Positions 374 through 61,255 of a stretch of DNA of 64,000 nt are shown piece after piece; the first letter of the stretch is position 1; the number at the start of each line of letters is the position of its first letter. A program made the position numbers and the translations under genes. This stretch comes from a bacterium (GTDB lineage: Bacteria > Patescibacteriota > Minisyncoccia > Phycocordibacterales > UBA9973). The DNA lies in assembly GCA_037143195.1 (NCBI GenBank), contig JBAWZD010000002.1, positions 207,157-271,156 on the forward strand, written 5' to 3'. The notes under the pieces are model-generated. The model worked only from the letters and a program-made list of their open reading frames with translations. It did not search any database and was not told where the DNA came from.

Positions 374-374
374 T

Positions 375-5068: not shown

Positions 5069-5117
5069 AATCGCCAACTCTGACTTAGCAATTTTTATTG
5101 CTAGGGAGTTGGCGATT
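5069..5117 (-). terminator. hairpin with nested stem, T-rich on minus strand; terminator of the lipoprotein gene
   Basis: aatcgccaactc...gagttggcgatt inverted repeat. Confidence 0.5.
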
Positions 5118-5130
5118 TGGAATGATTCTC

Positions 5131-5556: not shown

Positions 5557-5668
5557 ACTTAGTTTGTTGTTTAAATGTGAGATGTTGTTTAAATCCCGCA
5601 AGAGCCAATGAAGCTCCTCTGGGATTTAAACAATACCAACAACAAATCATTTTCAAGGGCCTGATTTT

Positions 5669-5769
5669 TATATATTATACTCCTTACATCGATTATTGTC
5701 AATAGCTCGGGGTCGCACGTAAAGTTCAGAAAAGAATGTTTCAACATCGTCCTAGACGGTCAGCTAGCG
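5669..5769. repeat. conserved intergenic module copy 2: minus-strand ttgaca-N17-tataat promoter plus conserved flank; followed at 5778-5813 by a 15-bp-stem palindrome ctaaaacagaaattg/caatttctgttttag
   Basis: sequence identity to copies 1 and 3. Confidence 0.6.
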
Positions 5770-5849
5770 TTTTTAGCCTAAAACAGAAATTGCTAAAACA
5801 ATTTCTGTTTTAGCAATTTGAATAAATTTAATTTGGTTACTTTTTCGTG

Positions 5850-6539
5850 TTATAAGAATAACTTACACATAGCGATGGTAACCGATGAAATGCAGACGAT
5901 GTTTATCCCTAGATTGTAAATCTGTGACGACAGACTTTTGCTCTTGATTCTAAAAATCAGGACGTACAAATTTCCAGCAATGAAGGGAATCAGCAACGGG
6001 TGTCCTTTGTGAAGTATCACAATTGCTGCAATCATTATACAGAATGCCGCGATTATAATTAGCCTCACCGTTAGGATTGTATTAAATAAGCTTGTGTGTA
6101 AAGAATCGCTTATTTTCCTTCGGCTCAGTTCCCACCACAGATACGGCCCGGTAATACTGATCATCCCCAATAAGGTGTATCCGGCATACCAGCCGGTGTC
6201 GGTGTGGATGTCTCCCCACCATGTTGTCTTGATCACTTCTTCCCATAAATAACGGGTAGAGTCGAGATACACGTATCGTGCAACTCCCATTCGGCCTGAG
6301 TACATTGTTGCATCAATTGTTGGCAATATGGCCGTAGCGAGCCAGCAAAGTGGTGCCATCAGCATCAGGGTCAGCAGTGTATTTTTTATCGTCGGATATT
6401 TCCATATCCAGTCAATTACACGCTTTTTCTTTCCCAGGGTTTCTGGGTCATTATTCAAGAGGGTGCACCCATACGCGTAGGCGATGCATGCCTGTGTCAT
6501 TACGATCGCAACCAGTGCGATAAAAATTGTCTGATTCAT
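5850..6539 (-). CDS. polytopic membrane protein, function unknown (track ORF starts at TTG 6623; ATG 6539 chosen)
   Basis: multiple hydrophobic segments. Confidence 0.5.
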   Translation of the reverse strand: MNQTIFIALVAIVMTQACIAYAYGCTLLNNDPETLGKKKRVIDWIWKYPTIKNTLLTLMLMAPLCWLATAILPTIDATMYSGRMGVARYVYLDSTRYLWEEVIKTTWWGDIHTDTGWYAGYTLLGMISITGPYLWWELSRRKISDSLHTSLFNTILTVRLIIIAAFCIMIAAIVILHKGHPLLIPFIAGNLYVLIFRIKSKSLSSQIYNLGINIVCISSVTIAMCKLFL

Positions 6540-6660
6540 ATTTGTCGTTTTTGTTTTGTGGCGTAAAGCCGGTTTGAGTTGGTTGCCCCAAGGGCCATAA
6601 AGCCTCTCGGGCAACCAATTCAAACCAAAACGACGTTAATTTCAAAGACTATTAATTTGT

Positions 6661-18281: not shown

Positions 18282-18644
18282 CTACGCTCTGCCGTACGCA
18301 TCACTGATGCGGAAGATATCTCCCTCGTCGAATTCGCCGAGGGAGATTTCTAAAAATTCGACATCGTCAGTGGGTGCACTGATGCGATGTGTTTGTTTGC
18401 GTTGAATAGTAAATTCGTCACCTTTGTGTGCGGTTGTTTTTGTATCCCCAATTTCAACGATCGGGGTGCCACTTACGATATGCCAAAATTCTTCGCGATG
18501 GTTGTGATATTGCAGACTCAGTACGCCACCTTTTTTGACGGAGATTATTTTTATCGTTGCGGGTGTGTTTTGTGTAAACAGGCGAAACATACCCCATGGT
18601 CGTTCAGTATTTTCTGGATGTAGTTGCATATGATTATTCTCCAC
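18282..18644 (-). CDS. cupin domain protein (mannose-6-phosphate isomerase type II-like)
   Basis: GGVLSLQYHNHREEFWHIVSG cupin motif. Confidence 0.65.
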   Translation of the reverse strand: MENNHMQLHPENTERPWGMFRLFTQNTPATIKIISVKKGGVLSLQYHNHREEFWHIVSGTPIVEIGDTKTTAHKGDEFTIQRKQTHRISAPTDDVEFLEISLGEFDEGDIFRISDAYGRA

Positions 18645-19404
18645 TTAAGATATCGTTGATAATTCGTTTTGTTTCTTCGGGTCCGGATGTTTCGCGCGTG
18701 TGTGAACCAAGCCGGTGTACTGATGCGTCATTGCCACCTTCGAAGAGGGCATCGCCGATGTAGAGGAGCTCCTGTGGGAGAATGGTGAGATGATTCATGA
18801 GGCGTTCAAGACCAGAGGCTTTGTCGATGCCTTGCTTGGTGATGTCTATCGAGGTGCTTCCGCCGATGCGAACGGAGAATTCGGGAAGGCGGGCACGAAG
18901 CGCGAGCGCGATGCGCTCGCGCTTCGCATGGTCTGGATCCCAACCTTCCTTGAGTGCAAGCGGTGCCTCGCTCCCAAATGCCGAAAAAGTAATCTGTGAA
19001 TCTCTGTCCTCAATCAAAATTCCGTGTACTGTTTCTGGGTATACAAATCCTGTTTCACTGAGAGCCTCGTCAAATGCCTGAAAGATTTTTTTCTTTTCGT
19101 CGCTCGTGAGTACGCTTGTGTGGAGTGTGTTCCACGTATCGCCATATTCATACAGACTCGCGCCATTGGTCGAGATGATATGGACACGTCCCGCGTGATC
19201 CCTTCGTGGAGTGAATGTCGAGAGAAATTGCTTTTCAAATTGTTGAAATGCTGCACCTGACACTATTGCCACATGCATCTCATCGAGCAGACGAGTCAGT
19301 AAGTCTGCCATTTCCGGAGTCAATCGAGATTTGCTCTCGGCGAGTGTTCCGTCGAGATCAAAGGCGATGAGTTTCAAATTCTTTTTTGATGCAGGGATTT
19401 TCAT
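18634..19404 (-). CDS. HAD-IIB (Cof-like) sugar phosphatase
   Basis: LIAFDLDGTLAESK motif I. Confidence 0.7.
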   Translation of the reverse strand: MKIPASKKNLKLIAFDLDGTLAESKSRLTPEMADLLTRLLDEMHVAIVSGAAFQQFEKQFLSTFTPRRDHAGRVHIISTNGASLYEYGDTWNTLHTSVLTSDEKKKIFQAFDEALSETGFVYPETVHGILIEDRDSQITFSAFGSEAPLALKEGWDPDHAKRERIALALRARLPEFSVRIGGSTSIDITKQGIDKASGLERLMNHLTILPQELLYIGDALFEGGNDASVHRLGSHTRETSGPEETKRIINDILSGE

Positions 19405-23683: not shown

Positions 23684-23714
23684 TATTTTTCTCCGTACTC
23701 GAATCGTCCTTACG

Positions 23715-24644
23715 ATGTATTACGTGCTCGTGGTGACCGTCATCATGTCGGTGTTTAGTACATTTTTGTATCTTGCACTCGAAAAAAATTTGCAGGATTC
23801 GATGGGTGAACTGCCTATTGTTGCGGTCTCAACACGACACTTGCTCCACATGGCACGCGAACATTTGGCGCATACTATTATTACGGTCGACGGGCTGACT
23901 CTTATCATTGTCGCGGTGTTGTGTTATCTGCTCGCGGGGTGGACACTTCGTCCAATCAAACGAGCACTTGATGACCAGCGTGCCTTTAGTGCCGATGCTT
24001 CACATGAATTGCGCACGCCACTCGCAGTCATCCAAAGCGAATCTGAAGTTTTGCTTCGGACCGCTTCACCAACGATTGATGAGTATCGTCACGTTGTAAA
24101 GAGTGCGCTCGAGGAAGTCATGCGAATGAAGAAGATCGTTGATGGTCTGCTTGTTCTCGCTCGTTCCGAACAAATCACGAGCGGACGATTCCAGCCTGTC
24201 GATCTTGGTCGTTTGCTCGATGATATTGTTGGTACCTTCGCTCCAATCGCGATTGCGCGCACTGTCATACTCTCAAGTCACAATATACAAGAGACCGTGA
24301 TGGTGAAGGGGCATGAGACAAAATTGAGGCATGCGTTTGGAAATGTTCTCAAAAACGCGCTTGATTTTACTCCTTCCGGAAAATCAGTGATTGTCCGTCT
24401 TCTGACACAAGGGAATCGCGCCGTCGTAGAGATTGTTGATACAGGGTCAGGGATTACAAACGAGGATCTGCCTCATGTATTTGAGCGATTCTATAAATCA
24501 AACGGACCACGCGAAGAACGGAATGGGACAGGGCTCGGGCTTGCGATCACAAAAGAAATTGTTGAAAACCATAACGGCACTGTGTCTATCACGAGTACAC
24601 TTGGTGAAGGCACGTGCGTTGTGTTTGATTTTCCGCTCATGTAA
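23715..24644 (+). CDS. sensor histidine kinase (alternative start ATG 23631 overlapping the RR)
   Basis: SHELRTPL H-box, HATPase_c motifs. Confidence 0.85.
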   Translation: MYYVLVVTVIMSVFSTFLYLALEKNLQDSMGELPIVAVSTRHLLHMAREHLAHTIITVDGLTLIIVAVLCYLLAGWTLRPIKRALDDQRAFSADASHELRTPLAVIQSESEVLLRTASPTIDEYRHVVKSALEEVMRMKKIVDGLLVLARSEQITSGRFQPVDLGRLLDDIVGTFAPIAIARTVILSSHNIQETVMVKGHETKLRHAFGNVLKNALDFTPSGKSVIVRLLTQGNRAVVEIVDTGSGITNEDLPHVFERFYKSNGPREERNGTGLGLAITKEIVENHNGTVSITSTLGEGTCVVFDFPLM

Positions 24645-24649
24645 CATAA

Positions 24650-25348
24650 ATGTATATGGATACTTCATCTACGATAATTGATTTAACACATACGATCTCG
24701 TCCAAGACACCGACGTTCGATGGCGGATGTGGATTCTATCTTTCGACTACGGTCGATTATCACGAGTGTACAGAACCGAATTTGTTTCGAGTGCAAAAGA
24801 TTGATATGCGTGCAGGTATTGGTACGCATATTGATGCGCCAGCGCATTGTATCGAAGGTGGTGAGACAATTGAATCACTCAAGCTTGAGAATCTCGTGAC
24901 TGCATGTGTGATGATCGCTGTTGATACGGGTGGCGAAGAAACATTTCGAATCCTTCCTGAGATCGTAGAAGCATTTGAAAAAACGCACGGACAAATTGCA
25001 TCAAATTCATTTGTTATTTTTTATACAGGGTGGGACAAGTACTGGGACACCGCAGAAAAATATTTGAATGATCACAAATCACCGAGTATCGATGTTCGCA
25101 CGGCCGAGCTTTTACTTGCTCGAAATGTCTCAGGAATTGGCATTGATACATTGTCCGCGGATAGCGGAGCAGAAGATTTTCCCGTGCACCGTGCAGTGCT
25201 TGGTGCAGGGAAGTATCTCGTAGAAAATATTGCGAATGCATCAAAACTTCCGTCGGTTGGTGCGCAGAGTATCGTGCTTCCGATGAAAATACAGGATGCA
25301 ACAGAATCACCAGTGCGTCTGATTGCGCTCGTTCCGTCAAAAATCTAG
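24650..25348 (+). CDS. cyclase family protein (kynurenine formamidase-like)
   Basis: GTHIDAPAHCIEGG motif. Confidence 0.7.
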   Translation: MYMDTSSTIIDLTHTISSKTPTFDGGCGFYLSTTVDYHECTEPNLFRVQKIDMRAGIGTHIDAPAHCIEGGETIESLKLENLVTACVMIAVDTGGEETFRILPEIVEAFEKTHGQIASNSFVIFYTGWDKYWDTAEKYLNDHKSPSIDVRTAELLLARNVSGIGIDTLSADSGAEDFPVHRAVLGAGKYLVENIANASKLPSVGAQSIVLPMKIQDATESPVRLIALVPSKI

Positions 25349-25378
25349 TCGAGCATCGTGTGGTATACTAGGTGAATT

Positions 25379-26101
25379 ATGACAACACAACGCGACCCAA
25401 TCGTACACACAGAAATTCACGCGACGACTATCAACTCAAAGCTGAATTGGTTGCGCGCTGCGGTTCTCGGAGCGAATGACGGAATCGTTTCTGTCTCATC
25501 TGTTGTTGTGGGTGTTGCGGGTGCGACAAACACGACCGGATTTATTTTGACTGCAGGTGTGGCGAGTCTCGTTGCCGGAGCACTTTCGATGGCTGTTGGT
25601 GAATATGTGTCCGTCAGTACACAGCGCGATACCGAACGTGCACTTCTTGAAAAAGAGCGTTGGGAATTGGTGAATGAACCAGAAGCTGAACAACAAGAAC
25701 TTGCGACGATTTACCAGCAAAAGGGTTTGTCAGAAAAGACAGCTCAGCTCGTAGCGCAAGAATTGACTGATCACGATGCGTTTGCTGCACACGTCGACGC
25801 AGAACTCGGACTCGACCCAGATGATCTCACGAACCCATGGCATGCAGCGTATGCTTCTGGTGCGGCGTTTTTCTGTGGAGCGATTATTCCACTTCTTGCA
25901 ATTGTATTACCACCCGCATCAATTCGTATTCCGGTCACATTCGGCGCAGTCATTATTGCCCTTATAATCACGGGAGGATTGAGTGCTCATGCAGGAGGTG
26001 CAAGCAAGCGCAAAGCGACACTTCGCGTTGTTGGAGGAGGATTGATTGCGATGCTTGTAACATTCGGAATCGGAAAATTGTTCGGCGTTGCGGGAATATA
26101 A
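25379..26101 (+). CDS. VIT1/CCC1 family iron/manganese transporter
   Basis: LRAAVLGANDGIVSVSSVVVGVAGA. Confidence 0.8.
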   Translation: MTTQRDPIVHTEIHATTINSKLNWLRAAVLGANDGIVSVSSVVVGVAGATNTTGFILTAGVASLVAGALSMAVGEYVSVSTQRDTERALLEKERWELVNEPEAEQQELATIYQQKGLSEKTAQLVAQELTDHDAFAAHVDAELGLDPDDLTNPWHAAYASGAAFFCGAIIPLLAIVLPPASIRIPVTFGAVIIALIITGGLSAHAGGASKRKATLRVVGGGLIAMLVTFGIGKLFGVAGI

Positions 26102-26104
26102 TCG

Positions 26105-26761
26105 CTAGTGAGTGATTCCAGGAATAATAAAGAAACCGTACAATACGGCGCAGAAATTGAGTGCTGCGTGTGAGAGGATAATGAGTGGCAAACTTGGGTA
26201 ACGAAGATACATCACGGCAAACCCAATACCACCAACGAACGCGACTGGCAACCCGACCATCGGGTTTGGAAATATTGTATGCAAGAAAACGAAGATGAGT
26301 GTATTGGTAATGACAATCATCGGTACATTGCGTGAGAGTTTGCCGAGTGCCGGAATGAGATACCCACGATACGCAACTTCTTGAAAGAACGATACGACAA
26401 AAAAGAGATAGAGGAAATGACTGTGCGTCCACCAACGTTTGATCTCTTCATTTTTAATAATATATTCACCGAATCCAATCAGGAGGAGCATCATGATGAT
26501 GGTGAATGCGAGATAGGGGAGGAAGTATTTTTTTAGAGTGCTTCTTTCCAAGAAAAACATACTTGGCGTCCATTTTTCATACACCAGAATCCCCGTGAAG
26601 AGTGTCACCATACCGACAAGTACAAATACTCGATCAGTAATCGGGATAATCTTTGCGTAAATGAGAGCGACTGGGATGATAAAAACAAGCACGATTTGAA
26701 TGAAAATTTCTATTCGGCTTGTTTCGATGCGACGAATCGCATGACTGACGCTTCTATGCAT
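26105..26761 (-). CDS. CPBP (CAAX) family intramembrane metalloprotease
   Basis: EEVAYRGY and FLH motifs. Confidence 0.7.
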   Translation of the reverse strand: MHRSVSHAIRRIETSRIEIFIQIVLVFIIPVALIYAKIIPITDRVFVLVGMVTLFTGILVYEKWTPSMFFLERSTLKKYFLPYLAFTIIMMLLLIGFGEYIIKNEEIKRWWTHSHFLYLFFVVSFFQEVAYRGYLIPALGKLSRNVPMIVITNTLIFVFLHTIFPNPMVGLPVAFVGGIGFAVMYLRYPSLPLIILSHAALNFCAVLYGFFIIPGITH

Positions 26762-26794
26762 ATCGATTTTAGTATATCATGGTGCGTATTCAAT

Positions 26795-28135
26795 ATGACA
26801 GAGTCACCAAAGCTTAAAACATATGTATTTCACGTTCACGGAATGCACTGCCATTCATGTGTTCTTTTGACAGAAAGGGAGCTTGGTTCTCTCTCATCAG
26901 TTTCAAACATTAAGACAAGCCTGAAGGAACGGACCATCACGGTACACGCTGTGTCTTCTCTGGACGTAGAATCTATTTTGGAAGAATGTAATGAAAAACT
27001 TCGTTCGTATGGATACTCACTTTCGCTTCAGAAGGAACGTATCAAACAAAAGTTTTCAGAATTCATCGTGGCCATTCCCGTTGCAATTGGTTTTATTGCC
27101 TTGTTTCTTTTTTTACAAAAGATTGGATTGTTTCATTTTGGCACGACTGGAACAGTGACTTATGGTAGTGCTTTTATTATTGGACTCGTTGCCTCTGTTT
27201 CGACGTGCATGGCAATTGTCGGTGGTTTGGTGCTTTCACTTGGAGCGACGGTTGCAAAAGAAGGAAGGTCAATGCGTCCGCAAATACTTTTCCATAGTGG
27301 ACGCATCCTCTCGTTTTTTGTTTTCGGAGGTCTGATTGGAATGCTTGGTGAAATTTTTAGCATTGGAACGACTGCAACACTGTTTTTGAGTTTTCTTACT
27401 GGGTTTGTCATGCTCATTCTGGGCATCAATTTGCTCCATGTCTTTCATTGGTCCAAACGATTACAGTTTGTCATGCCAAAAGCATTATCTAAGCATGCAT
27501 TCGGAATGACACAATTGAATCACACCTTTACACCGTTTCTTATTGGTGTCGCGACGTTCTTCTTGCCATGTGGTTTTACTCAGGCAATGCAAGTATATAC
27601 TTTGACGGCCGGAGGATTTCTCCATGGCGGACTCATTATGGGTGCGTTTGCGCTCGGAACACTTCCCGTACTTGCAGGTATCTCCCTGAGTTCGTTTTCG
27701 ATTACGAATAGCCGGCACTCGGGAATGTTTTTTAAAACGGTTGGAATTGTTGTTATCTTTTTTGCATTGTTCACGTTGAGCAGTAGTCTTGCACTTACTG
27801 GTATTTCTGTGCCAACACTATCGTATTCTCGAGGGGCAAGTCTTGTGAAAAAAAATGTATATATTGTAGATGGAGTACAGGTAATTGCAATAAAAGCGGG
27901 TGAGGGGTATTCTCCAAGTACGACTATTGCAAAGGCTGGTATTCCAACTATTGTTCGATTTACTACGAATGGGTCACTTGATTGTTCGTCGTCTGTTCGG
28001 ATTCCGAGTTTGAATATGTCTCGTTTTTTGAATCTCAATGGCACGACAGATGTTGATCTTGGAATACCGAAAGTTGGGTTACTTGGAGGAATGTGTGGTA
28101 TGGGAATGTTTCCGTTCTCGATTGATTTTAAATAA
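26795..28135 (+). CDS. HMA-domain fused TauE/SafE-like membrane protein with C-terminal cupredoxin-like domain
   Basis: HGMHCHSCV metal-binding motif; polytopic core; start ATG 26795. Confidence 0.6.
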   Translation: MTESPKLKTYVFHVHGMHCHSCVLLTERELGSLSSVSNIKTSLKERTITVHAVSSLDVESILEECNEKLRSYGYSLSLQKERIKQKFSEFIVAIPVAIGFIALFLFLQKIGLFHFGTTGTVTYGSAFIIGLVASVSTCMAIVGGLVLSLGATVAKEGRSMRPQILFHSGRILSFFVFGGLIGMLGEIFSIGTTATLFLSFLTGFVMLILGINLLHVFHWSKRLQFVMPKALSKHAFGMTQLNHTFTPFLIGVATFFLPCGFTQAMQVYTLTAGGFLHGGLIMGAFALGTLPVLAGISLSSFSITNSRHSGMFFKTVGIVVIFFALFTLSSSLALTGISVPTLSYSRGASLVKKNVYIVDGVQVIAIKAGEGYSPSTTIAKAGIPTIVRFTTNGSLDCSSSVRIPSLNMSRFLNLNGTTDVDLGIPKVGLLGGMCGMGMFPFSIDFK

Positions 28136-28157
28136 GGTGTAGAATGATAAACAGTAT

Positions 28158-29240
28158 ATGTATACAAAAATAATTAAGCCGATTTTGTTCCGTTTTGATC
28201 CTGAGCATGTGCATGATTTCTTTGTCGCGACGGGGCGAGTGCTTGGGGCGACCGCGCTCACGCGCGGTCTTGTCAGCATGTTTTGTCGCTACGAAAATCC
28301 AATGCTCGAGACAACGGTCTCGGGGATTCACTTCAAAAACCCCATCGGCCTCGCGGCTGGATTCGACAAGGACGTGCAGCTCACGAGTGTCATGCCCGCA
28401 GTTGGCTTCGGATATATGGAAGTCGGTGCGGTGACGCGCCACCCGTATGAAGGCAACAAAGGTCTTCGTCTCGCACGGTTACCCGCGGATCAATCACTCA
28501 TTGTGTACTACGGACTCAAAAATATTGGTGCCGTTGAGATCGAAAAGAAACTCAAGAAACTTTCGTTTTCATTTCCCGTTGGACTCAATATCGCCAAGAC
28601 AAATCGCGCAGACATTATGGGAGAGAAGTCCGTCGAAGATTATGTCGAGACATATCGTATGCTTGGCAAGTATTTCGCGTATGTGACGATCAACGTCTCA
28701 TGCCCGAATGCGCAAGACGGATGTACGTTTCAAGATCCTGCCATGCTCGACGACTTGCTCGGCGCATATGCCAAAGAGGAAAAAGTGTGTCCAATCTTTC
28801 TCAAAATTTCGAGTCATTTGAGTGAGCAAGAGATCGATGCCATTCTCGCCGTCGTAGAAAAGTATTCATTCATCGATGGATTCATCACCGGCAATCTTTC
28901 AAAGCGTCGCGATATTCTTGATTTGAAATCAGACAAGGCGCGTTTGGATTTGATTCCTGCGGGTGGAATTTCTGGCAAGCCAGTGCAAGAACTCACCACA
29001 AACGAGATTCGATATATCTACCAGAAGACAAAAGGGAAGTATGTCATCATCGGTCTTGGTGGCGTCTTCACCGCCGAAGATGCATATGAAAAGATAAAAG
29101 CTGGAGCATCGCTCGTGCAAATCATCACTGGCCTCATTTACGGCGGTCCAACAACAGTAAAAGACATCAACAAAGGTCTCGTCGCGCTCTTGAAACGCGA
29201 TGGCTACAAAAATATCGCTGAAGCTGTAGGGAAAGAATAA
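28158..29240 (+). CDS. pyrD: dihydroorotate dehydrogenase (quinone), class 2
   Basis: N-terminal membrane-association extension, NVSCPN and GLGGV motifs. Confidence 0.9.
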   Translation: MYTKIIKPILFRFDPEHVHDFFVATGRVLGATALTRGLVSMFCRYENPMLETTVSGIHFKNPIGLAAGFDKDVQLTSVMPAVGFGYMEVGAVTRHPYEGNKGLRLARLPADQSLIVYYGLKNIGAVEIEKKLKKLSFSFPVGLNIAKTNRADIMGEKSVEDYVETYRMLGKYFAYVTINVSCPNAQDGCTFQDPAMLDDLLGAYAKEEKVCPIFLKISSHLSEQEIDAILAVVEKYSFIDGFITGNLSKRRDILDLKSDKARLDLIPAGGISGKPVQELTTNEIRYIYQKTKGKYVIIGLGGVFTAEDAYEKIKAGASLVQIITGLIYGGPTTVKDINKGLVALLKRDGYKNIAEAVGKE

Positions 29241-29379
29241 GCTTGGGTTCGCAAAAAACAAAAAAGCACTTTTGAAAGTACCGGCGTAAATTTCTGAAGA
29301 AATTTCGCCTCACGCTCGCGCCGTCGCGCTCCGCGAGTACTTTCAAAAGTGCTTTTTTGTTTTTTGCGAACCCAAGCTT
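29239..29379. repeat. 141-bp palindromic terminator element A: perfect 43-bp outer arms spanning stop codon to stop codon of convergent genes, with GC-rich core homologous to the element at 58974-59096
   Basis: inverted repeat and core identity read directly. Confidence 0.7.
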
Positions 29380-29935
29380 ACTGCGTCTTCGCTGTCAGCG
29401 TACCTTTGTGCCACGGCGTGCCAAGAGCGGGAAGTGCCCAGTAATCAAGTCCGAGATATCCCACGACGCGCCACGCAAGGATGAGTCCAAGCGAAAGGAT
29501 AAGGAGCACGGGGTTTACGCTCACCGTTCCCGCGAGGAGATAGTTGAGATTCATAAAGAATCCAAAGAATGCGGCGATGCCAGCAAACAATCCAATGATG
29601 AGCGCAACACCGACGAGCACTTCGCCGTATGCAACGACGTGTGACCACAATGCTGCATGAGGAAGAATGGCGTGAGAGAGGAACCATCCATACCAACTTT
29701 GGACATCAGGATGGTCGCCAACAGTTTTGGCGAGGGCTGCTCGCAAAAATCCTGTAAGTGCGCCACCTGCTTGTCCACCAACCCACGCAGGTGAGTGGAC
29801 TTTGTCCAAGCCTGCTTCCAGCCATTGCCATCCGACATACACGCGGACGATGAGCCAGAACCAGGCGAACTTGGGACTTTGTAAAATAAACTGCGCGAAC
29901 TTTGGTTCTTCAATTACCTGTGAAGAAGTATTCAT
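29378..29935 (-). CDS. DoxX family membrane protein
   Basis: hydrophobic profile, DoxX-like N-terminus. Confidence 0.6.
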   Translation of the reverse strand: MNTSSQVIEEPKFAQFILQSPKFAWFWLIVRVYVGWQWLEAGLDKVHSPAWVGGQAGGALTGFLRAALAKTVGDHPDVQSWYGWFLSHAILPHAALWSHVVAYGEVLVGVALIIGLFAGIAAFFGFFMNLNYLLAGTVSVNPVLLILSLGLILAWRVVGYLGLDYWALPALGTPWHKGTLTAKTQ

Positions 29936-30139
29936 ACTTTTTACTGTTATAAATTCACCTAATAATAAAAACGAACTTTACCTATCATACAACTTTGTGT
30001 CGTTTTAGTTATCCACCATTGCTCTGGTTTTGTGCGAGGGCGTATAATGGCAGTCCACTAGTTTCGATATATCGCAACTATTTGATTATTTACTCCTCAT
30101 CCGTCAGTCGCGGAAGGGAATACTAGAACAACAACACAC

Positions 30140-30688
30140 ATGGATACGAGAAAAAAATGGGCTCGCACACTTGGTGCATTTATGATTTGTTTGATTGTTC
30201 GATTGATTCCTGTTCGCGCTCCAAATGTTGAGCCTATACTCGCCGTACAGATGCCATTTGCGAAGCGATACGGCCCGCTCCTTGCGTTTTTGTTTGGGTT
30301 CGCGAGTATTCTCCTCTATGACATCATAACGAGCCGTGTGGGCATCTGGACGCTTATTACAGCCATTGCCTACGGAGCACTTGGAATTGCAAGTTCGCTC
30401 TATTTCAAACACCGTTCTGGTACCCGAAAACAGTTTGTGGCGTTCGCGATTGGTGCAACGATCCTCTATGACGCGATTACGGGGCTCACGATTGGACCAT
30501 TGTTCTTCCATCAGAGTTTTGTGACTTCGTTTGTCGGTCAAATTCCATTTACTGCATTCCACTTGCTCGGAAATATCCTCTTCGCTCTTGTACTCAGTCC
30601 TGCAATCAATCGTTACCTTACGTTTGATGATGCTCGAAGTCGTTCATTCGTCGAAAATCCAATTACAAATCCATCATTCATCTCATAA
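30140..30688 (+). CDS. membrane protein, possibly an ECF-transporter S component (CbrT-like), first gene of the nrdJ operon
   Basis: about 180 aa with 5-6 helices; context with B12-dependent RNR; 3-nt gap to nrdJ. Confidence 0.4.
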   Translation: MDTRKKWARTLGAFMICLIVRLIPVRAPNVEPILAVQMPFAKRYGPLLAFLFGFASILLYDIITSRVGIWTLITAIAYGALGIASSLYFKHRSGTRKQFVAFAIGATILYDAITGLTIGPLFFHQSFVTSFVGQIPFTAFHLLGNILFALVLSPAINRYLTFDDARSRSFVENPITNPSFIS

Positions 30689-30691
30689 CCT

Positions 30692-32968
30692 ATGAAAAAT
30701 CTCAAAAAATACTCTGCACTCAAAAGTATCCAGAAGCGCGACACTTCAATCGTTCCCTTTGATCCAAAGCGTATCGAACGCGCGCTCGCGCGCGCTATGG
30801 AAGTAGCGAACGAGGGAGGAAGTAAAGAGGCAGAGCATGTCATGTTCAAAGTGCTCGACACATTGCTTGCACTCAAAGCGGAAAAGAAGAACAAGAATTT
30901 CATTCCATTCGTTGAGACGATTCAAGACGTCGTTGAAAACGAACTCATTGCAGCAAATTTTTCACAGACAGCCAAGGCATACATTTTGTACCGTAAGGAG
31001 CGCTCGCTCGTGCGTGAGAAAGTTGGATTTGTTCCAGAGAAAGTCAAAGAGCTTGCAACTGAGAGTAAAAAATATTTCCGCAATCCGCTTGCAGAGTTTG
31101 TGTACTACCGCACCTACTCACGTTGGATCCCAGAAGAGGGACGTCGAGAGACATGGGTGGAGACCGTTGATCGTTACATGAGCTTCATGCGCGAGAACCT
31201 CGGTTCAGGTCTCACCGAAAAAGAATATGCAGAAGTCCGCGAGGCGATTCTTCGCCAAGAAGCAATGCCATCGATGCGCCTTTTGCAGTTTGCAGGCAAG
31301 CCCGCACGCCGCTCAAACGTGTGTGCGTACAACTGTTCATTCATTGCGCCTCGATCATTCCAAGATTTCGCTGAGATAATGTACATCTCCATGTGTGGTA
31401 CTGGAGTCGGCTGGAGTGCTGAAAGTGAAAATATTCAAGCGCTTCCACAAATCAAACGCCAGACAGGAAAGAAGCTTCCAACATATCTCGTGCCAGACAG
31501 CAAGGAAGGATGGGCAGATGCATTTAGCTTTGCGATGAAGACATGGTTTGATGGTAATGATGTTTCGTTCGACTACTCACTCATTCGTCCAGCAGGTTCA
31601 CGTCTCAAGACAATGGGAGGCAAGAGTTCTGGTCCAGAGCCACTTCGTTCATTGCTCGATTTCACTCGTGAGCGTATTCTTCGTCGCCAAGGACGTCACC
31701 TCACAAACCTCGATGCACACGACATCATGTGTAAGATTGGAGAATGTGTCGTTGCCGGTGGTGTTCGACGCAGTGCGATGATCTCGCTCTCTGATCTTGA
31801 TGACGAAGCAATTCGTGATTCAAAGAAAGGTCAGTTCTATCTCGCCGAAGCTCAGCGTATGCTCGCAAACAACTCTGCGGTCTACCTCGAGAAACCATCT
31901 GCATCAGAATTCCTCGATGAATGGGTCGCACTCATGAAGAGTGGATCAGGAGAGCGTGGTATTTTCAATCGCGGATCACTCGCAAAGACATTGCCAAAGC
32001 GTCGTCTTGATCAATGGAAAGATGGTATCTATCCATCATGGGGCACAAACCCATGTGGAGAAATCATTCTTCAGTCAAAACAATTCTGTAACTTGTCAGA
32101 AGTTGTTGCGCGCGCAGAAGACACACTCGAAGATCTCGAACGTAAGATTCGCGTTGCCACGATTCTCGGTACGTACCAATCAACACTCACATACTTCCCA
32201 TACCTTTCAAATGAATGGAAGCGCAATTGTGAGAAGGAACGTTTGCTCGGAGTTTCAATCACTGGTCAGTGGGATTCTTCAGTTGCACGTAAGCCAGAAG
32301 TACTTGAACGTCTCAAAACAGTTGCAGTTGATCTCAACAAGAAACTCGCAAAGCGTCTCGGTATCAATCAGTCACTCACTGTTACGTGTGTGAAGCCATC
32401 AGGCACAGTGTCACAGACAGTGGACTGCGCAAGTGGCATGCACCCACGTCATGCTCCATATTACATTCGTCGTGTTCGCATCTCTGCGAGTGATGCACTC
32501 TTCAAGATGCTCCGTGATCAGGGCGTGCCATATCTTCCAGAAGTTGGACAAACAATGGAAGGCGCATCAACATTCGTATTTGAATTCCCAATGAAGGCTC
32601 CAAATGGCGCAATTTGTCGCGATGATATCGACGCAATCAGACAGCTCGAACATTGGAAAGTCGTTAAAGTGAATTACACAGAACACAATCCATCCGTAAC
32701 TATTTCTGTCGGTGAAGATGAATGGATCAAGGTGGGCAACTGGGTCTATGAAAACTGGGATATCGTTGGAGGACTTTCATTCTTGCCACGCTCAAACCAT
32801 GTCTACCAGCTCGCACCATATGAATCCATCACCAAGGAGCAGTACGAAGCAATGCTCGGCAAGGTCTCGCATTTGGATTTCTCAAAGATTGTGACGTACG
32901 AGGTCGAGGACGAGACAGAAGTGAAGCGTGAGCTCGCCTGTGTCGCCGGAGTGTGTGATACCGCATAG
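30692..32968 (+). CDS. nrdJ: class II adenosylcobalamin-dependent ribonucleotide reductase
   Basis: ATP-cone N-terminus, NPCGEI active-site motif, size. Confidence 0.9.
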   Translation: MKNLKKYSALKSIQKRDTSIVPFDPKRIERALARAMEVANEGGSKEAEHVMFKVLDTLLALKAEKKNKNFIPFVETIQDVVENELIAANFSQTAKAYILYRKERSLVREKVGFVPEKVKELATESKKYFRNPLAEFVYYRTYSRWIPEEGRRETWVETVDRYMSFMRENLGSGLTEKEYAEVREAILRQEAMPSMRLLQFAGKPARRSNVCAYNCSFIAPRSFQDFAEIMYISMCGTGVGWSAESENIQALPQIKRQTGKKLPTYLVPDSKEGWADAFSFAMKTWFDGNDVSFDYSLIRPAGSRLKTMGGKSSGPEPLRSLLDFTRERILRRQGRHLTNLDAHDIMCKIGECVVAGGVRRSAMISLSDLDDEAIRDSKKGQFYLAEAQRMLANNSAVYLEKPSASEFLDEWVALMKSGSGERGIFNRGSLAKTLPKRRLDQWKDGIYPSWGTNPCGEIILQSKQFCNLSEVVARAEDTLEDLERKIRVATILGTYQSTLTYFPYLSNEWKRNCEKERLLGVSITGQWDSSVARKPEVLERLKTVAVDLNKKLAKRLGINQSLTVTCVKPSGTVSQTVDCASGMHPRHAPYYIRRVRISASDALFKMLRDQGVPYLPEVGQTMEGASTFVFEFPMKAPNGAICRDDIDAIRQLEHWKVVKVNYTEHNPSVTISVGEDEWIKVGNWVYENWDIVGGLSFLPRSNHVYQLAPYESITKEQYEAMLGKVSHLDFSKIVTYEVEDETEVKRELACVAGVCDTA

Positions 32969-32971: not shown

Positions 32972-33541
32972 ATGCTGTATACCAGAAAAGGAGATAAAGG
33001 AACGACGAAACTCTTCGACTGTCCGCAAGGAACGCGGATGTCGAAGAGCGCCGTGACCTTTGAAGCGCTCGGAACACTCGACGAGTTGAATTCTTCGCTT
33101 GGATATGCCAAAGTGTTGGCTGCTCGTAGTGAGGCCCACCTCATGATGGCAGGAGAGAAGCATTTGTATACGTCGCTCATTGGGCGAATACAGAACATGC
33201 TTTTTACGACGCAGGCAGAGCTTGCGGGAGCGCAGAAACAAGTCACTGAAGCAGATGTGTTGTTTGAAGAACAGGTCATCGCCGAGGTTGAAAAAGATTT
33301 GCCACCGATTACGTCGTTTATCGTCGCAGGTGGTGGCGAGACGGGTGCGTATCTTGATGTCTGTCGTACGATTGCTCGACGTGCAGAACGCGGAGTGATC
33401 GACGCGATGGAGACAGACAAGCGTGCGGTGTCTGATGAGACATTAAAATTCTTGAATCGTCTCTCGAGTGTGCTCTACGCACTCGCTCGATATGCGAATC
33501 ATCAAGAAGGATTTGCGGAGCGTGCGCCAGAGTATAGTTGA
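32972..33541 (+). CDS. PduO-type ATP:cob(I)alamin adenosyltransferase
   Basis: TRKGDKGTT hallmark. Confidence 0.85.
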   Translation: MLYTRKGDKGTTKLFDCPQGTRMSKSAVTFEALGTLDELNSSLGYAKVLAARSEAHLMMAGEKHLYTSLIGRIQNMLFTTQAELAGAQKQVTEADVLFEEQVIAEVEKDLPPITSFIVAGGGETGAYLDVCRTIARRAERGVIDAMETDKRAVSDETLKFLNRLSSVLYALARYANHQEGFAERAPEYS

Positions 33542-33569
33542 GGGTGATGTGCGGTGCGATTACAAATGA

Positions 33570-33735
33570 ATAATCATGATTGGGGAAGTGAGGTGAAAAT
33601 CCTCCACAGTGCCGCTACGGTTATAGTCCGACTACCAATCATTGATGTAGTAATGAAACTTTTTGTTTCATCCCGAGCAGGAAATGGTCGCGCGTACGCG
33701 CGACCCCGGTACTCCTCTCCTCGGGGGAGTTTTTT
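33570..33735 (+). promoter_or_regulatory. candidate cobalamin riboswitch with terminator-type expression platform (hairpin plus TTTTTT at 33709-33734)
   Basis: GGGGAAg-tga-GGTGAAAATCC-tcca-CaGtgCCGCtACgGTtA matches the AdoCbl core GGGAA..GGUGnAAnUCC..CnGnCCCGCnACnGUnA; AGCAGGAAA resembles a degenerate B12 box. Confidence 0.6.
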
Positions 33736-33740: not shown

Positions 33741-34160
33741 ATGAAAAAAAATAAGCAATGGTTCGTGGCGGGAGGAGTGCTGATTGTTTTGGTTCTTGTG
33801 ACGACGAGTATGTTTGCAGAGGTGCATCGATTTCAAAAAACGGTTCCGCAATCTGGAGCACCGATTTCATCGACGAATGATCCTCTCGTTTCGTTTGAAG
33901 CAGGGACTGTTCACCTCTCGCTTCCTTTCCGCGCGGGAGAGACGCTGTATGATGCGATGACTGACGCGAAGAACGCGGGCACACTTACATTTTCAGGCAA
34001 AGAATATTCTGGTCTCGGATATTTTGTCACAAGTGTTGGTTCTCTCTCTGAAGGAAACGGGAAGCACCTCATGTATTTTATTAATGACAAGGAAGCATCG
34101 GTTGGTGTTTCAACGTACGCTCCCAAAAACGGCGATACTATTATGTGGAAATTGAAGTAG
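33741..34160 (+). CDS. DUF4430-like secreted/anchored protein (transcobalamin beta-domain-like)
   Basis: signal anchor; riboswitch immediately upstream. Confidence 0.6.
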   Translation: MKKNKQWFVAGGVLIVLVLVTTSMFAEVHRFQKTVPQSGAPISSTNDPLVSFEAGTVHLSLPFRAGETLYDAMTDAKNAGTLTFSGKEYSGLGYFVTSVGSLSEGNGKHLMYFINDKEASVGVSTYAPKNGDTIMWKLK

Positions 34161-43135: not shown

Positions 43136-43253
43136 CCGGACAAATAAAAAACTCTTTTGAAGAAGGCCTTTCGCAGGCGCTTGGCGCCGAGAAGCTCGCG
43201 CGCGAGCACGCGTGACGAGTTGCCTTTTCAAAAGAGTTTTTTAATTTGTCCGG
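43136..43253. terminator. 118-bp palindromic bidirectional terminator between convergent genes
   Basis: ccggacaaataaaaaactcttttgaa / ttcaaaagagttttttaatttgtccgg arms with GC-rich core. Confidence 0.65.
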
Positions 43254-57119: not shown

Positions 57120-57761
57120 ATGCATATCAAAAAAATTGGCCATTGTTGTCTTGTTATAAACACCGGCTCCGTCACTATCATGACTGATCCAGGTGGCTTT
57201 AGTACGGCGCAGAACGACGTGCGGGGTATCGATATCGTACTCGTTACCCATGAGCATCACGATCATTTTCACATTGATTCAGTGAAGCAAATCATTGCGA
57301 ATAATCCGAACGTAAAAATCATCACCAATGCTACTGTTGGCGCTCTTTTGACCGCAGAGAATATTCCATTTGAATGTGTCGCACAAGGAGGAGAAAACAA
57401 AGCTCACGGGGCTCATATCGAAGGCTACGGATGTACGCACGCGACGATATATCAAGACATGGGTCAGACAGAGAATACTGGATACTTTATCGATGGCAAA
57501 CTTTTCTATCCAGGAGATGCATTTACGAATCCAAATCGTCCTATTGATATTCTCGCGCTTCCATCAGCTGGTCCGTGGATGAAGGTAAGTGATGCAATTA
57601 CCTATGCATGTATGCTTAAACCACGTGTGGCCTTTCCGGTACACGATGCGATCATGAGTCAGCACTTCGTTGGATTCTTACATGGAATGCTTGAGAAAAT
57701 ACTCAGTCAAAATTCGGTGACCTTTATCGGATTGAAAGAGGGAGAAGAAAAAGATTTTTAG
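57120..57761 (+). CDS. MBL-fold metallo-hydrolase (alternative start 57093)
   Basis: HEHHDH motif; tatact -10 at 57107-57112 suggests near-leaderless start. Confidence 0.65.
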   Translation: MHIKKIGHCCLVINTGSVTIMTDPGGFSTAQNDVRGIDIVLVTHEHHDHFHIDSVKQIIANNPNVKIITNATVGALLTAENIPFECVAQGGENKAHGAHIEGYGCTHATIYQDMGQTENTGYFIDGKLFYPGDAFTNPNRPIDILALPSAGPWMKVSDAITYACMLKPRVAFPVHDAIMSQHFVGFLHGMLEKILSQNSVTFIGLKEGEEKDF

Positions 57762-58945
57762 TCTCGGTGTGAAGGTACCCACCATGTCTCGTTTTTTTCG
57801 AGATAGAATGATACAACGAAACCAATCATGAGGATGATGCCGAGGACGGCGAAAATCATTTGAAAGGGAAGGACGGCGAGCGCAAGCGCTCCAAGGAGTG
57901 GTGCGAGGACATACGAGAGTGGTCGCACATCTGCGAAGAGGGCGATAACACCAGGGTCGTCTTCTTTTGCGACTTTGAAGAAATGAATCTCTGTCATTGC
58001 TTCGACTGTTGCTGCTCCGATACGTGAGATGAAAAGGAGTGCTCCAACAGTCAGTGCTGTAGGTGTATTGAGGAGTGCGAGTGAAAAGACGCTTCCTGCC
58101 ATGAGCAAGAATCCAAGAGCGGAGAGTTCTTTTTCACTGCCAAGCCAATCAGCAATCTTGCCGAGTGGGTAGTCGAGTATCACAAAGGTTGCGAGCATGA
58201 CGGAGAAAATTATTCCGATCGTATCCCATGAGAATCCGAGATATTTCGAGAGATAGATTGGCGTATAGACGACCATCCATGCGTAAAAGAATTGCAGAAT
58301 GAAGTTTGCCGAAATTACATTGCGGAGTGTACGCGTGCGGAGCGTGTGACGAAAGGCACTTTCGAATTTTCCAAAGTCATAGGTCGTATCTTTGTACTCA
58401 CCGAGACCGATATATGTCGCGATTGCGAGCACTGCAAAAATAGCGAGACCAAGTACATATGTTCCCGCGTATCCACCGAGGTCGATGACTTTGCCTGCGC
58501 AAAACGGCCCGAGCATGATACCGACGTTTCCAAGCAGAAGGAAGAAGCCACGTGCAAGACCGCGCCCTTTTTTGGGTTCAAGATGATGAAAGAAAATATT
58601 GAGTGAGAACAAAAGCATGTTCATCGTGACGAGATACACGATGAGTGCAACGACATGCAAAATAGTGTTTACTGGTGCTGACAATACGAGAAGAGAGAGT
58701 GCGTAGCATGTTCCGCTCGCAAAGAAGTACATTTTGTTTCCGTATCGTTTGAGCGTTGGTCCTGCTTTCGTCAATATGAGAATACTTACGATTGCACTGA
58801 GCGCATACAGCAATCCAACCTTTTCAGGACCAATACTATTTTCAATATAACTTGAGTTTGTGTAGAGCGTTACTGCTCCGGCAAACGAAAAAAGAAAATT
58901 AATGAGATACACTACTCCGCGCATGCGGATCGTCTTTTTGTGCAT
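57758..58945 (-). CDS. MFS transporter
   Basis: 12-TM profile. Confidence 0.8.
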   Translation of the reverse strand: MHKKTIRMRGVVYLINFLFSFAGAVTLYTNSSYIENSIGPEKVGLLYALSAIVSILILTKAGPTLKRYGNKMYFFASGTCYALSLLVLSAPVNTILHVVALIVYLVTMNMLLFSLNIFFHHLEPKKGRGLARGFFLLLGNVGIMLGPFCAGKVIDLGGYAGTYVLGLAIFAVLAIATYIGLGEYKDTTYDFGKFESAFRHTLRTRTLRNVISANFILQFFYAWMVVYTPIYLSKYLGFSWDTIGIIFSVMLATFVILDYPLGKIADWLGSEKELSALGFLLMAGSVFSLALLNTPTALTVGALLFISRIGAATVEAMTEIHFFKVAKEDDPGVIALFADVRPLSYVLAPLLGALALAVLPFQMIFAVLGIILMIGFVVSFYLEKNETWWVPSHRD

Positions 58946-58973
58946 GTGTATATTTTAGCAGAGTATATGTTAT

Positions 58974-59096
58974 TTGCCGAATTAAAAATACCCACTTTCA
59001 AAAGTACCGGCGTAAAATCCTGAAGGATTTTTGCCTCACTCTCTCGCCGTCGCGCTCCGAGAGTACTTTTGAAAGTGGGTATTTTTAATTCGGCAA
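58974..59096. repeat. 123-bp palindromic terminator element B, abutting the rnj stop codon; core homologous to element A (29239-29379) with compensatory substitutions
   Basis: perfect 34-bp arms; 56-nt core about 84 percent identical to A. Confidence 0.7.
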
Positions 59097-59101
59097 ATTG
59101 C

Positions 59102-61255
59102 CTACACTGCGAGAAGAACTGGAATCACGAGAGGACGCTTCGCTGTTTTTTGGAACAAGAATTTCGAGAGATTGTCTCCGAGTGTTCCACGGAGCATCTC
59201 GAAGTTTACTTGTTGCATGTCATGTGCGCCATCTTCGATGGAATGCTTCACGATTTGGCGTGCCTCATGCAAGAGTTCTTGTGATTCTTTGAGGTACACG
59301 AATCCGCGAGAGATAATATCAGGAGACTTCTTGAGTTTGCCTGTCTTCTGGTCGATTGTCGCAACGATAACGAACATACCGTCTTGAGCGAGCATTTGTC
59401 GGTCACGAATGACGACTTCCTGTTCATCTCCAACAGTAAATCCATCCACCATCATGAGTCCACTTGCTGCCTTTTCCTTGCGGAGAGTCATCTTTTGACC
59501 GTCAGCCGAGATTTCAATAATCGATCCGTTGTCTGGGACAACGATGTGTGATTCTGGAATACCAATCTCTATTCCCAGACGCTTGTGTGACTGAAGCATG
59601 TAGTGACTACCGTGGATTGGAATGAAGAATTTTTCATTCACTTTGCGGTGAAGCCACTTGATGTCTTCTTTGTTTCCGTGACCTGTCGCGTGGACGTAGT
59701 CTTCTCCACTCGTTCGGTAGGTGACGATGTTCACACCTTGGCGAGCGAGACCATCTTTCATTTTTGCGACCTGAACTTCGTTTCCAGGGACAATCGAAGC
59801 TGAAAGAATGATTGTGTCGTTCTTCTTGAGTGAGAATTTCTTGTGTGTCTTTTGTGCGGCACGATTGAGTGCGGCAAATTCTTCGCCTTGGGCACCAGTC
59901 ATGAGAATGATGATGCGATCAGGAGGGAAGTTGTCGATCTCTTCAATCGAGATGAGTGTGTCCTTCTTTGGTTTGAGCAATCCTGCTTCGATAGACACTT
60001 CCATGTTTGTTTTCATGGAGCGACCTTCGAGCACGACTTTCTTTCCGAGTTCTTCGGCGATCTCGATGATCTTGATGAGACGAGTGATGTGTGAGGCGAA
60101 GGCTGCGATGATGAGACGTCCGCCTTTGTTTGCACGGATGAGACGATCGAGACCTTGGTGCACGCGCACTTCAGGCAATGCGAATCCTTCATTCTCAACG
60201 TTGGTTGAGTCTGTCATGAGAAGCAAGGTCTTATTTTTGTCGAAGATAGAGTATTCCTTTTCTTCGTCATCAGAAACGATACCGTCGATCTGGTCGAGCT
60301 TGTAGTCTCCTGGGTTTACGATCCAGCCGTGTGGTGTTTCGAGAATGATACCCATCGAGTCTGGCACCGTGTGTGTCACACCGAAGAATTTCACGCGCAT
60401 TTTGCCGACAGTGATGACTTCGTCACGCTCAACAACAATCGCATTGAGTGGTGGAAGATGTGGGAATTCTGTCTGGCGCTTCTTCATGAGAAGCACTGTA
60501 AGGTTACGAGAATACACTGGTGGATTGCCGATACGTGAAAGTACGAGTGGAAGTCCTCCGATGTGGTCAAGGTGACCGTGGGTGATGAAGACCGCGCGGA
60601 TTTTGTCCTTGCGTTCTTCGAGGTACGTTGTGTTTGGAATAATGTAGTCGATACCAGGGGTACTGTCGCCAGCAAATTGCATTCCCGCATCAATGACGAT
60701 GATGTCATCTTTGGTTTCGATTGCAGTGAGGTTCTTTCCGACTTCTTCGACTCCTCCGAGTGGAATGATACGGTACACACCTTCTTCTGGCGGAGGAATT
60801 TGTGGGCCACGCTTTCGTGGAGCATTTTCTGTACTGCCAGCTTCGGGCATGCGTGGGTGACTTGGAGCCTTACCACGACGCTTGTGTTCTGGATATTGAT
60901 ACGATGGACGTGATGAATGACGCGCGCCACCTTGATGTGCAGGTTTTGCACCTGCGACAGGGGTATGTGCGCCCGCCACTGCTACGCCTGCTTCACGATT
61001 TGGATTGTGAGGCATACGCTGGGGATTGTTTGGATTGTGTGGACGATGATTTGGATTGTGTCCACCTGGTCCGCGATGATGATGTGGGCGACGTGGTCCG
61101 AGTGGGGGAAGCGATGCTCCTCCGACGCCTGCAGTAGCACGTTCGATTGCTCCGTCGATTCCAGAACCTCCACCGATGTTTGATCGGGGGATGTCGTTCT
61201 TGAGTGACTGGAGAATTGCGCCGAGTGGCGACTTTGGTTTTTGATTTCTAGGCAT
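59102..61255 (-). CDS. rnj: ribonuclease J with about 170-aa disordered Gly/Pro/His-rich N-terminal extension
   Basis: ITHGHLDHIGG metallo-beta-lactamase/beta-CASP motifs. Confidence 0.85.
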   Translation of the reverse strand: MPRNQKPKSPLGAILQSLKNDIPRSNIGGGSGIDGAIERATAGVGGASLPPLGPRRPHHHRGPGGHNPNHRPHNPNNPQRMPHNPNREAGVAVAGAHTPVAGAKPAHQGGARHSSRPSYQYPEHKRRGKAPSHPRMPEAGSTENAPRKRGPQIPPPEEGVYRIIPLGGVEEVGKNLTAIETKDDIIVIDAGMQFAGDSTPGIDYIIPNTTYLEERKDKIRAVFITHGHLDHIGGLPLVLSRIGNPPVYSRNLTVLLMKKRQTEFPHLPPLNAIVVERDEVITVGKMRVKFFGVTHTVPDSMGIILETPHGWIVNPGDYKLDQIDGIVSDDEEKEYSIFDKNKTLLLMTDSTNVENEGFALPEVRVHQGLDRLIRANKGGRLIIAAFASHITRLIKIIEIAEELGKKVVLEGRSMKTNMEVSIEAGLLKPKKDTLISIEEIDNFPPDRIIILMTGAQGEEFAALNRAAQKTHKKFSLKKNDTIILSASIVPGNEVQVAKMKDGLARQGVNIVTYRTSGEDYVHATGHGNKEDIKWLHRKVNEKFFIPIHGSHYMLQSHKRLGIEIGIPESHIVVPDNGSIIEISADGQKMTLRKEKAASGLMMVDGFTVGDEQEVVIRDRQMLAQDGMFVIVATIDQKTGKLKKSPDIISRGFVYLKESQELLHEARQIVKHSIEDGAHDMQQVNFEMLRGTLGDNLSKFLFQKTAKRPLVIPVLLAV

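Follow-up and report, generated by a model that had tools for sequence, protein, structure and literature searches.

Several kinds of dispersed palindrome are known from bacterial genomes. MITE-like repeats, such as Correia/NEMIS in Neisseria, ERIC/IRU in enterobacteria, RUP/BOX in pneumococci and the Rickettsia palindromic elements, are non-coding inverted-repeat units of approximately 100-150 nt, and these bacterial repeats can supply terminators, promoters and even codons. The REP, BIME and REPIN sequences of enterobacteria and pseudomonads are extragenic palindromes located in 3' UTRs or between convergent genes. Some BIMEs have a protein-binding site between two inverted REPs, and the insertion sequences IS1397 and ISKpn1, which have a transposase and target duplications, target REP hairpin loops. 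Quasi-palindromes can be corrected at the DNA level by template switching, and a possible role in mRNA stability would apply to any 3' hairpin. It has been reported that REP elements act as 3' UTR terminators and mRNA stabilisers (bioRxiv 10.64898/2026.03.23.713779), that terminator-promoter overlap is common and widespread in bacteria (bioRxiv 10.64898/2026.08.19.745784), and that the stems of Bacillus cereus terminators evolve by compensated changes with G.U as the commonest intermediate (PMC5381666). Knowledge of non-coding regulatory or mobile elements in the small, streamlined genomes of the Patescibacteria (CPR) is scarce, and the literature searched yielded no account of similar elements there.

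The element described here, copy B, lies in a 64-kb stretch of DNA (the window, meaning the whole stretch analysed), which was assigned to an uncultivated member of the Paceibacteria/Parcubacteria (CPR) through its RNase J homologues. By analogy, REP elements can be regarded as the nearest functional analogue of copy B. The two are alike in being dispersed extragenic palindromes in 3' UTRs or between convergent genes, at locations that vary between relatives. However, the stem of REP, an imperfect palindrome of 20-40 nt, is conserved, whereas the present element has variable stems and a conserved tip; REP elements occur in hundreds of copies and the present element in a handful to tens; and there is no sequence similarity between them. 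No RAYT (Y1 transposase) gene was seen among the window ORFs scanned. Bidirectional intrinsic (Rho-independent) terminators are, like the element, found at the 3' ends of genes and frequently between convergent ones; they share with it the succession of A-run, GC stem and T-run, and a possible overlap with the promoter of the next gene (here that of an MFS transporter). In addition, the stems of the element change by compensation as in Bacillus cereus, but its arms, unlike the terminators of that species, lack G.U intermediates (PMC5381666). The arms are 31-44 bp long, which is far beyond what a terminator needs, and the "loop" is a conserved branched module of 55 nt instead of 3-8 nt.

Like the MITE-like repeats, the element is dispersed, lineage-specific and present or absent among relatives, and the arms of one copy (L002) supply codons. 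It differs from them in that there is no target-site duplication, the outer termini are unconserved, the core appears to be under strong purifying selection at orthologous loci, and the arms resemble host terminators. The comparison of loci L005a and L077 suggests an insertion into the apex of an existing extragenic hairpin, as is known for IS1397 and ISKpn1, but the insert is approximately 71 nt and non-coding, and no enzyme was found. An integron attC site was considered and rejected: attC requires a conserved outer RYYYAAC ... GTTRRRY and has a variable centre, whereas the outer TTGCCG...CGGCAA of the element varies and its centre is conserved.

Copy B and its flanking genes

The features of copy B and its surroundings are as follows (window coordinates).

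58972..59007, no strand: left arm of copy B; from outside to inside, clamp TTGCCG, A-rich run, ACCCAC and TTTCAAAAGTAC adjoining the core
59008..59062, plus strand: core of copy B, 55 nt, non-palindromic, sequence CGGCGTAAAATCCTGAAGGATTTTTGCCTCACTCTCTCGCCGTCGCGCTCCGAGA
59009..59035, plus strand: inner hairpin P2, GGCG-T-AAAATCC-TGAA-GGATTTT-TGCC
59041..59063, plus strand: inner hairpin P3, CTCTCG, 11-nt loop CCGTCGCGCTC, CGAGAG
59063..59098, no strand: right arm of copy B, 36 nt, mirrors the left arm and includes the T-run TATTTTTAATT
59102..61255, minus strand: rnj (RNase J), with Pfam Lactamase_B, RNase_J_b_CASP and RNase_J_C; stop 3 nt from copy B
57758..58945, minus strand: MFS transporter gene (PF07690 in the orthologue); ATG 26 nt past copy B
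58952..58980, minus strand: promoter-like site, TCGGCA-17-TGcTAAAAT, a consensus match only

All 36 of the 36 arm pairs are Watson-Crick, with zero G.T, and the arms enclose 55 nt. The sequence-only reading had described a perfect inverted repeat around a conserved core; this was found to be correct, except that the arms are 36 bp and not 34 bp long. The GC content is 56% in the core versus 31% in the arms, and the P3 loop is invariant in 8/8 copies of the family described below. The folding energy of copy B was -67.8 kcal/mol on the plus strand and -68.8 kcal/mol on the minus strand, which corresponds to z = -13.8 and -12.5, respectively, against dinucleotide shuffles. A perfect 36-bp inverted repeat is not expected to arise by chance within 64 kb. 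Short-read assemblers do break at the element, as they might at an assembly artefact. However, z-scores near -13 and the recovery of the element at matching sites from independent assemblies of different projects make an artefact or a chance palindrome scarcely credible.

Both flanking genes are on the minus strand, where the order is the rnj stop, 3 nt, copy B, 26 nt and the MFS ATG; these gaps, measured from the 36-bp arms, refine the earlier placement a few nucleotides from the rnj stop and about 30 nt before the MFS start. The core is antisense to the rnj/MFS transcript if that of copy A is taken as sense to pyrD. The MFS promoter-like site matches the consensus at 9/12 positions with the TG present; its -35-like hexamer lies within the outer arm of copy B and its -10-like hexamer ends 6 nt before the ATG. 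TAAAAT is found at an equal distance from the MFS ATG in the orthologous loci L055 and L068, the latter of which is without the element. The position of the -10-like hexamer suggests that the MFS mRNA may be leaderless or near-leaderless. A promoter within the element itself (TTGAAA ... TAAATT) was rejected, as its spacing is 9-11 nt and promoter scans found none. RNase J of the window has an N-terminal extension of approximately 160 residues (60775-61255, minus strand), which is of low complexity, rich in Pro, His, Asn and Gly, and variable or missing in the gene calls of relatives.

As read from the sequence, copy B has the A-run before the stem and the mirrored T-run after it that characterise a terminator, but in place of a simple hairpin with a loop of about 3-8 nt it has a branched tip of 55 nt. 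A simple consensus terminator scan did not call copy B because loops were limited to 8 nt in that scan. We consider it moderately probable that copy B is a bidirectional hairpin of the intrinsic-terminator type with a small conserved insert at its tip. The outer part of the arms has the plain-terminator design (GC clamp, A-run, short GC stem and T-run mirror), and the inner part is an inverted repeat of about 8 bp (RAAAGKAC / GKMCTTTY) around the GC-rich core of 55 nt with its two short hairpins. The long hairpin followed by the T-run would end rnj transcripts and would also stop polymerase arriving from the opposite side, and the MFS gene would be left to its own promoter-like signal overlapping the nearest arm. 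A 55-nt branched tip is atypical of intrinsic terminators, which speaks against this model.

Family members and conservation of the core

Two further elements are present in the window.

29238..29380, plus strand: copy A, 44-bp perfect arms and a 55-nt core as in copy B
43136..43253, no strand: element C, arm design as in copies A and B, other core; between the convergent trhO (plus) and a 120-aa ORF (minus)

The assignment of copies A and B to one family in the sequence-only reading agrees with their having the same 55-nt core. The two cores show nine differences, including compensated changes in the two small inner hairpins. The arms of copy A include the TAA stops of both convergent genes, pyrD (plus) and a DoxX-family gene (minus). 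The arm motif CTTTYRAAAG, noted earlier, occurs in copies A and B, and a variant, CTCTTTTGAA, occurs in element C. For element C, the same architecture with a different core had been described, and a core-only covariance model (R2), which scored 90.4 bits on copy B, did not detect the core of element C at E <= 10. Element C was therefore treated as a separate family. Homology of the two cores, both of which have a GGCG hairpin and a GCTCGCG stem, was rejected on this result. In the orthologue of element C (L071 10875-11048), both core blocks are kept and the arm changes are compensated; an extra 53 nt between the core blocks is unique to it among the loci compared.

In total, eight distinct copies of the family of copy B (family 1) were found in three related Paceibacteria genomes: copies A and B of the window (winA and winB), L002, L003, L004, L005a and L005b of CAITQP01 bin-1343, and L055 of a relative in GROS21-1. 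When 185,579 species genomes were searched with the core pattern TGAA-N8-GCCTCAC-N7-CCGTCGCGCTCC, only one matched, the lake MAG CAITQP01 bin-1343, at five places, and a close relative in the GROS21-1 assemblies has the element at the rnj site (L055). The copy density is thus 2 in the 64-kb window and 5 pattern matches in bin-1343. Neither the whole-element (R1) nor the core-only (R2) covariance model found copies beyond these eight in approximately 400 kb of related sequence. A looser pattern, GCCTCAC-N7-CCGTCGCGCTCC, gave 49 loci in JGI metagenomes, all of them chance matches, mostly in GC-rich unrelated DNA, and 0 fitted the model. Four patterns had zero matches in viral contigs, and BLAST of the core against plasmids and phages matched nothing. 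At the gathering level, Rfam left the element unmatched in a search of the whole window, where the sole family was an AdoCbl-II riboswitch elsewhere. At E <= 10, copy B, element C and a further family (family 2, see below) gave only long-hairpin artefacts far below threshold, and ARAGORN predicted neither a tRNA nor a tmRNA. The element was found in independent assemblies, namely NCBI CAITQP01, ENA GROS21-1 and the window, and it constitutes a real, lineage-restricted family among the dispersed extragenic palindromes and terminator-associated repeats. Short-read contigs break within elements: L001 breaks off after 31 nt of the arm of copy B, and L063 within a family-2 core. Censuses on fragmented assemblies will therefore undercount the family. 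The arginine decarboxylase orthologue P0241 (94% identity) is on a contig of 4137 nt, approximately the distance from L005b to L005a.

All eight copies adjoin gene 3' ends at 0-27 nt from stop codons, and these include 5/5 copies of bin-1343, in agreement with the gene-end enrichment expected earlier. In copies A, L003 and L002, stop codons lie inside the arms. Half of the copies (4/8) are between convergent genes and the other 4/8 between co-directional genes. Among the co-directional copies, the core is antisense to the flanking genes in winB, its orthologue L055, and L005b, and sense in L004. The orientation of the core relative to transcription is thus not fixed, which argues against a strand-specific RNA role. 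At L002 912-1036, a 171-aa ORF and a convergent inositol-monophosphatase-like gene both terminate with codons for Ala-Lys-Asn and a stop, all of which lie within the arms (GCCAAAAATTAA). The last four codons of each gene, stops included, thus come from the element.

Orthologous copies were compared with their surroundings. L003, which contains the orthologue of copy A, is syntenic with window positions 23712-31712 (81% nucleotide identity), and L055 and L071 are syntenic with the window at 49-63 kb (82-85%). Divergence of orthologues at four-fold degenerate sites in pyrD, DoxX, rnj and MFS was 32-51%, and the arms of orthologous copies were 15-26% divergent. The core of copy A differed from that of L003 at 1/55 positions and the core of copy B from that of L055 at 5/55, and the core blocks of element C differed from those of L071 at 1/65. 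These alignments imply that the core at each locus is either under strong purifying selection or homogenised by conversion. The latter is unlikely, given that orthologues have one P2 variant in common while paralogues keep two. A core that is nearly unchanged amid diverged surroundings is probably functional, since a mere passenger should decay and its conservation thus needs a function. The most conserved part of the element is the core and not the arm motif: the outer arm ends differ among all paralogues, and only the inner 8-13 bp (CTTTYRAAAGKAC) are common. A sequence-specific partner, such as the recognition protein suggested earlier, is plausible in view of a core conservation far above that of neutral sites.

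Gain and loss at orthologous gene ends

There are 15 long hairpins in the window. A large insert (tip of 55-65 nt) was found in 3/15, namely copies A, B and element C, and the loops of the other 12/15 are 0-26 nt. Elements are therefore a minority class of terminator-like hairpins, and the idea of one terminator style used genome-wide had to be abandoned for a low-copy family. Most of the small-loop hairpins inspected in the window and related genomes have an A-run, a GC stem and a T-run, some with an outer clamp. The element arms are built alike, with an outer GC clamp, an A-run, a GC stem and a mirrored T-run. The rnj 3' sites of relatives are given below with the identity of rnj to that of the window.

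L055, 98% aa identity: element
L068, 95% over the catalytic part: no hairpin; flanking DNA approximately 70% identical
L069, 86% aa identity: 7-nt spacer
L058, 82% aa identity: plain GC hairpin
L066, 79% aa identity: plain GC hairpin
L062, 81% aa identity: long palindrome with an unrelated core of approximately 90-105 nt

Elements are thus gained or lost between relatives. Between gatB and dnaJ, GCA_017991895.1 (L077) has a 26-nt spacer with no hairpin, and bin-1343 has copy L005b. Together with L068 and L069 at the rnj-MFS site, this comparison suggests that whole palindromes can appear, arms included, which speaks against insertion at a tip for these two sites. A different situation was seen on the 3' side of the deoxyhypusine synthase gene, where GCA_017991895.1 (L077) has the plain terminator AAAAACCCCC-AAATTT-GGGGGTTTTT and bin-1343 (L005a) has AAAACACCCCC-GAAAGGAC-core-GTCCTTTC-GGGGGTGTTTT. 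This alignment suggests that a unit of approximately 71 nt was inserted at the tip of a pre-existing terminator, although the C5/G5 stem match could be due to chance. Comparing such plain and tip-insert terminators at orthologous sites might reveal the ways in which new terminators and 3' UTR modules originate. No target-site duplication was found at the outer or inner boundary in the copies inspected; the GTAC beside the core is inverted, not direct, as seen from GCAC...GTGC in L002 and GGAC...GTCC in L005a. No partner enzyme for insertion was found among the ORFs and annotated loci scanned.

A CTTTTGA-like motif adjoins three unrelated cores, those of family 1, element C and family 2, which fits either a shared insertion mechanism or a shared backbone. 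More tentatively, and with considerable doubt, these sequences might belong to a kind of tiny non-coding insert that has not been described: one with terminal repeats of the CTTTTGA type (about 8-13 bp), interchangeable cores of 55-120 nt in at least three core families, and homing to the tips of terminator hairpins with no duplication of the target. In that case, the core would have been recruited at many 3' ends as a specific sequence tag for a factor that binds RNA, processes it or binds DNA. Family 2 itself (L062 8906-9045 and 17746-17910) consists of terminator-like palindromes with a multi-copy core and unrelated arms. Its core blocks GCAGCCGAGGACTGTCTGAGTAGAGCGGTTTC and TGTTACGCGAGGCGAGTTCCGCAGGCAAG border a variable middle, and a search for a consistent fold of this core found none.

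The elements could also be purely selfish miniature transposable elements, that is, the whole palindrome of approximately 125-145 nt would be mobile and tolerated only at gene ends, and the core would be needed by the mobilising enzyme. A dispersed non-coding inverted repeat whose orthologous sites are filled or empty among relatives, two of them without any hairpin in outgroups, is compatible with this explanation, as are the single arm layout (clamp, A-run, GC stem and CTTTYRAAAG) and the breaking of short-read contigs there. However, the outer arm ends are the least conserved part, unlike the termini of transposase-driven MITEs, and target-site duplications are absent. Selection for mobility would give an individual old copy no protection, yet orthologous cores are 91-98% identical against a neutral divergence of 32-51%. 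Furthermore, no transposase was found in the first 30 kb of the window, in the syntenic annotated loci or in approximately 400 kb of related sequence, and plasmids, phages and viral contigs gave no match. We therefore regard purely selfish mobility as unlikely. If the element were only a domesticated miniature element, it would be one more lineage-specific repeat of modest interest. In the preferred terminator-type model, the core would have entered the tips of terminator hairpins by insertion, which would give it a mobile origin, and would then have been kept by purifying selection at each locus.

The gene order around two copies also differs between relatives. GCA_017991895.1 (L077 9823-11982) has the gene order deoxyhypusine synthase, IMPase, arginase. 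In bin-1343, the IMPase gene is on another contig beside element L002 (L002 408-1792), and the synthase/arginase junction (L005 5025-7198) has L005a; family-1 copies are thus at both breakpoints.

Candidate roles of the core and other features of the window

A structural alignment of the eight copies was examined for covariation. In this alignment, 96% of the cells were paired and 21/41 pairs had changed on both sides, a level reached by 0/500 shuffles and far from that of slid registers. The outer stem accounts for 18 of the 21 covarying pairs, and its two arms have co-evolved: in the six copies with perfect arms, 224/225 pairs are Watson-Crick with no G.T, and orthologous copies also differ by symmetric indels. 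In the inner hairpins, two pairs of P2 are compensated between the family variants (TTTC/GAAA and ATCC/GGAT) and one pair of P3 in copy B (G-C to T-A).

A structured non-coding RNA, either a stable small RNA or a ribozyme-like three-way junction in which the long stem closes the fold and the core is active, might produce such a pattern. A three-way junction is indeed predicted with a very low folding energy, and conservation of the core reaches that of functional RNAs. On the other hand, the covariation of the outer stem was rejected as evidence for an RNA on account of its perfect Watson-Crick symmetry and symmetric indels, which resemble those of a DNA palindrome; it is not RNA-specific, because two-strand (bidirectional) selection or template-switch correction would be expected to yield it equally. 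The asymmetry of G.U and A.C gave no signal for an RNA strand either: the arms contain neither, and each is found in four cells of the inner helices, so that the strand of a putative RNA cannot be assigned. The orientation relative to flanking transcription varies, scans found no promoter of its own, and no Rfam family was found even at E <= 10. Taken together, a structured non-coding RNA seems quite improbable. A hammerhead core, lambda boxB (which has CTGAAGAA in common) and the tRNA-Phe anticodon loop were also tried, and the pairing register misfits all of them.

In the case of a site acting at the DNA level, a nucleoid protein, a topoisomerase or a recombination protein would bind the core in its duplex or cruciform form, as in some proposals for REP/BIME of E. 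coli. A function independent of orientation suits the mixed orientations of the core, the arms are strictly Watson-Crick symmetric on both strands, half of the copies are between convergent genes, and elements are present at the gene-order breakpoints between bin-1343 and GCA_017991895.1. However, a candidate protein is lacking, the compensated changes in P2 and P3 favour folding of a single strand over recognition of a duplex, and bidirectional termination is another explanation of the two-strand symmetry. A role confined to DNA binding is, in our estimation, doubtful to a similarly high degree. For the terminator-type hairpin with a tip insert, the most likely role of the core would be that of a docking site for a trans-acting factor, presented either by the folded 3' end of the RNA or by extruded DNA. 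At several unrelated gene ends, this stretch of 55 nt has kept 91-98% identity in spite of a synonymous divergence of one third to one half. Such a pattern points to recognition by a trans-acting partner, and it should therefore be possible to find that partner.

Other features were observed in the window. An AdoCbl-II (cobalamin) riboswitch at 33563-33645 (plus strand) scored 55.4 bits against a gathering threshold of 36.5; it is located between ORF 32972-33541, whose syntenic counterpart in L071 is annotated as Cob_adeno_trans, and ORF 33741-34160. Two fragments resembling tRNA 3' halves (GTTCGAGTCCGAGTGGGGCTCA and GCGACTCGAAC) lie at 1442-1539 (minus strand), where no tRNA was predicted. 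In the region 1-6600, the ORFs 375-1463, 1646-2128, 2268-2840, 3177-4019, 5131-5601 and 5850-6623 have no Pfam match, and there are several unusual hairpins; this region may be a remnant of an integrated element. In addition, a perfect 14-bp GC-rich palindrome, CGAAGCGCGAGCGC-GAT-GCGCTCGCGCTTCG, is located at 18896-18926 in a HAD-hydrolase-like ORF (18634-19404, minus strand), and it has the motif GCGCGAGC in common with the element cores.
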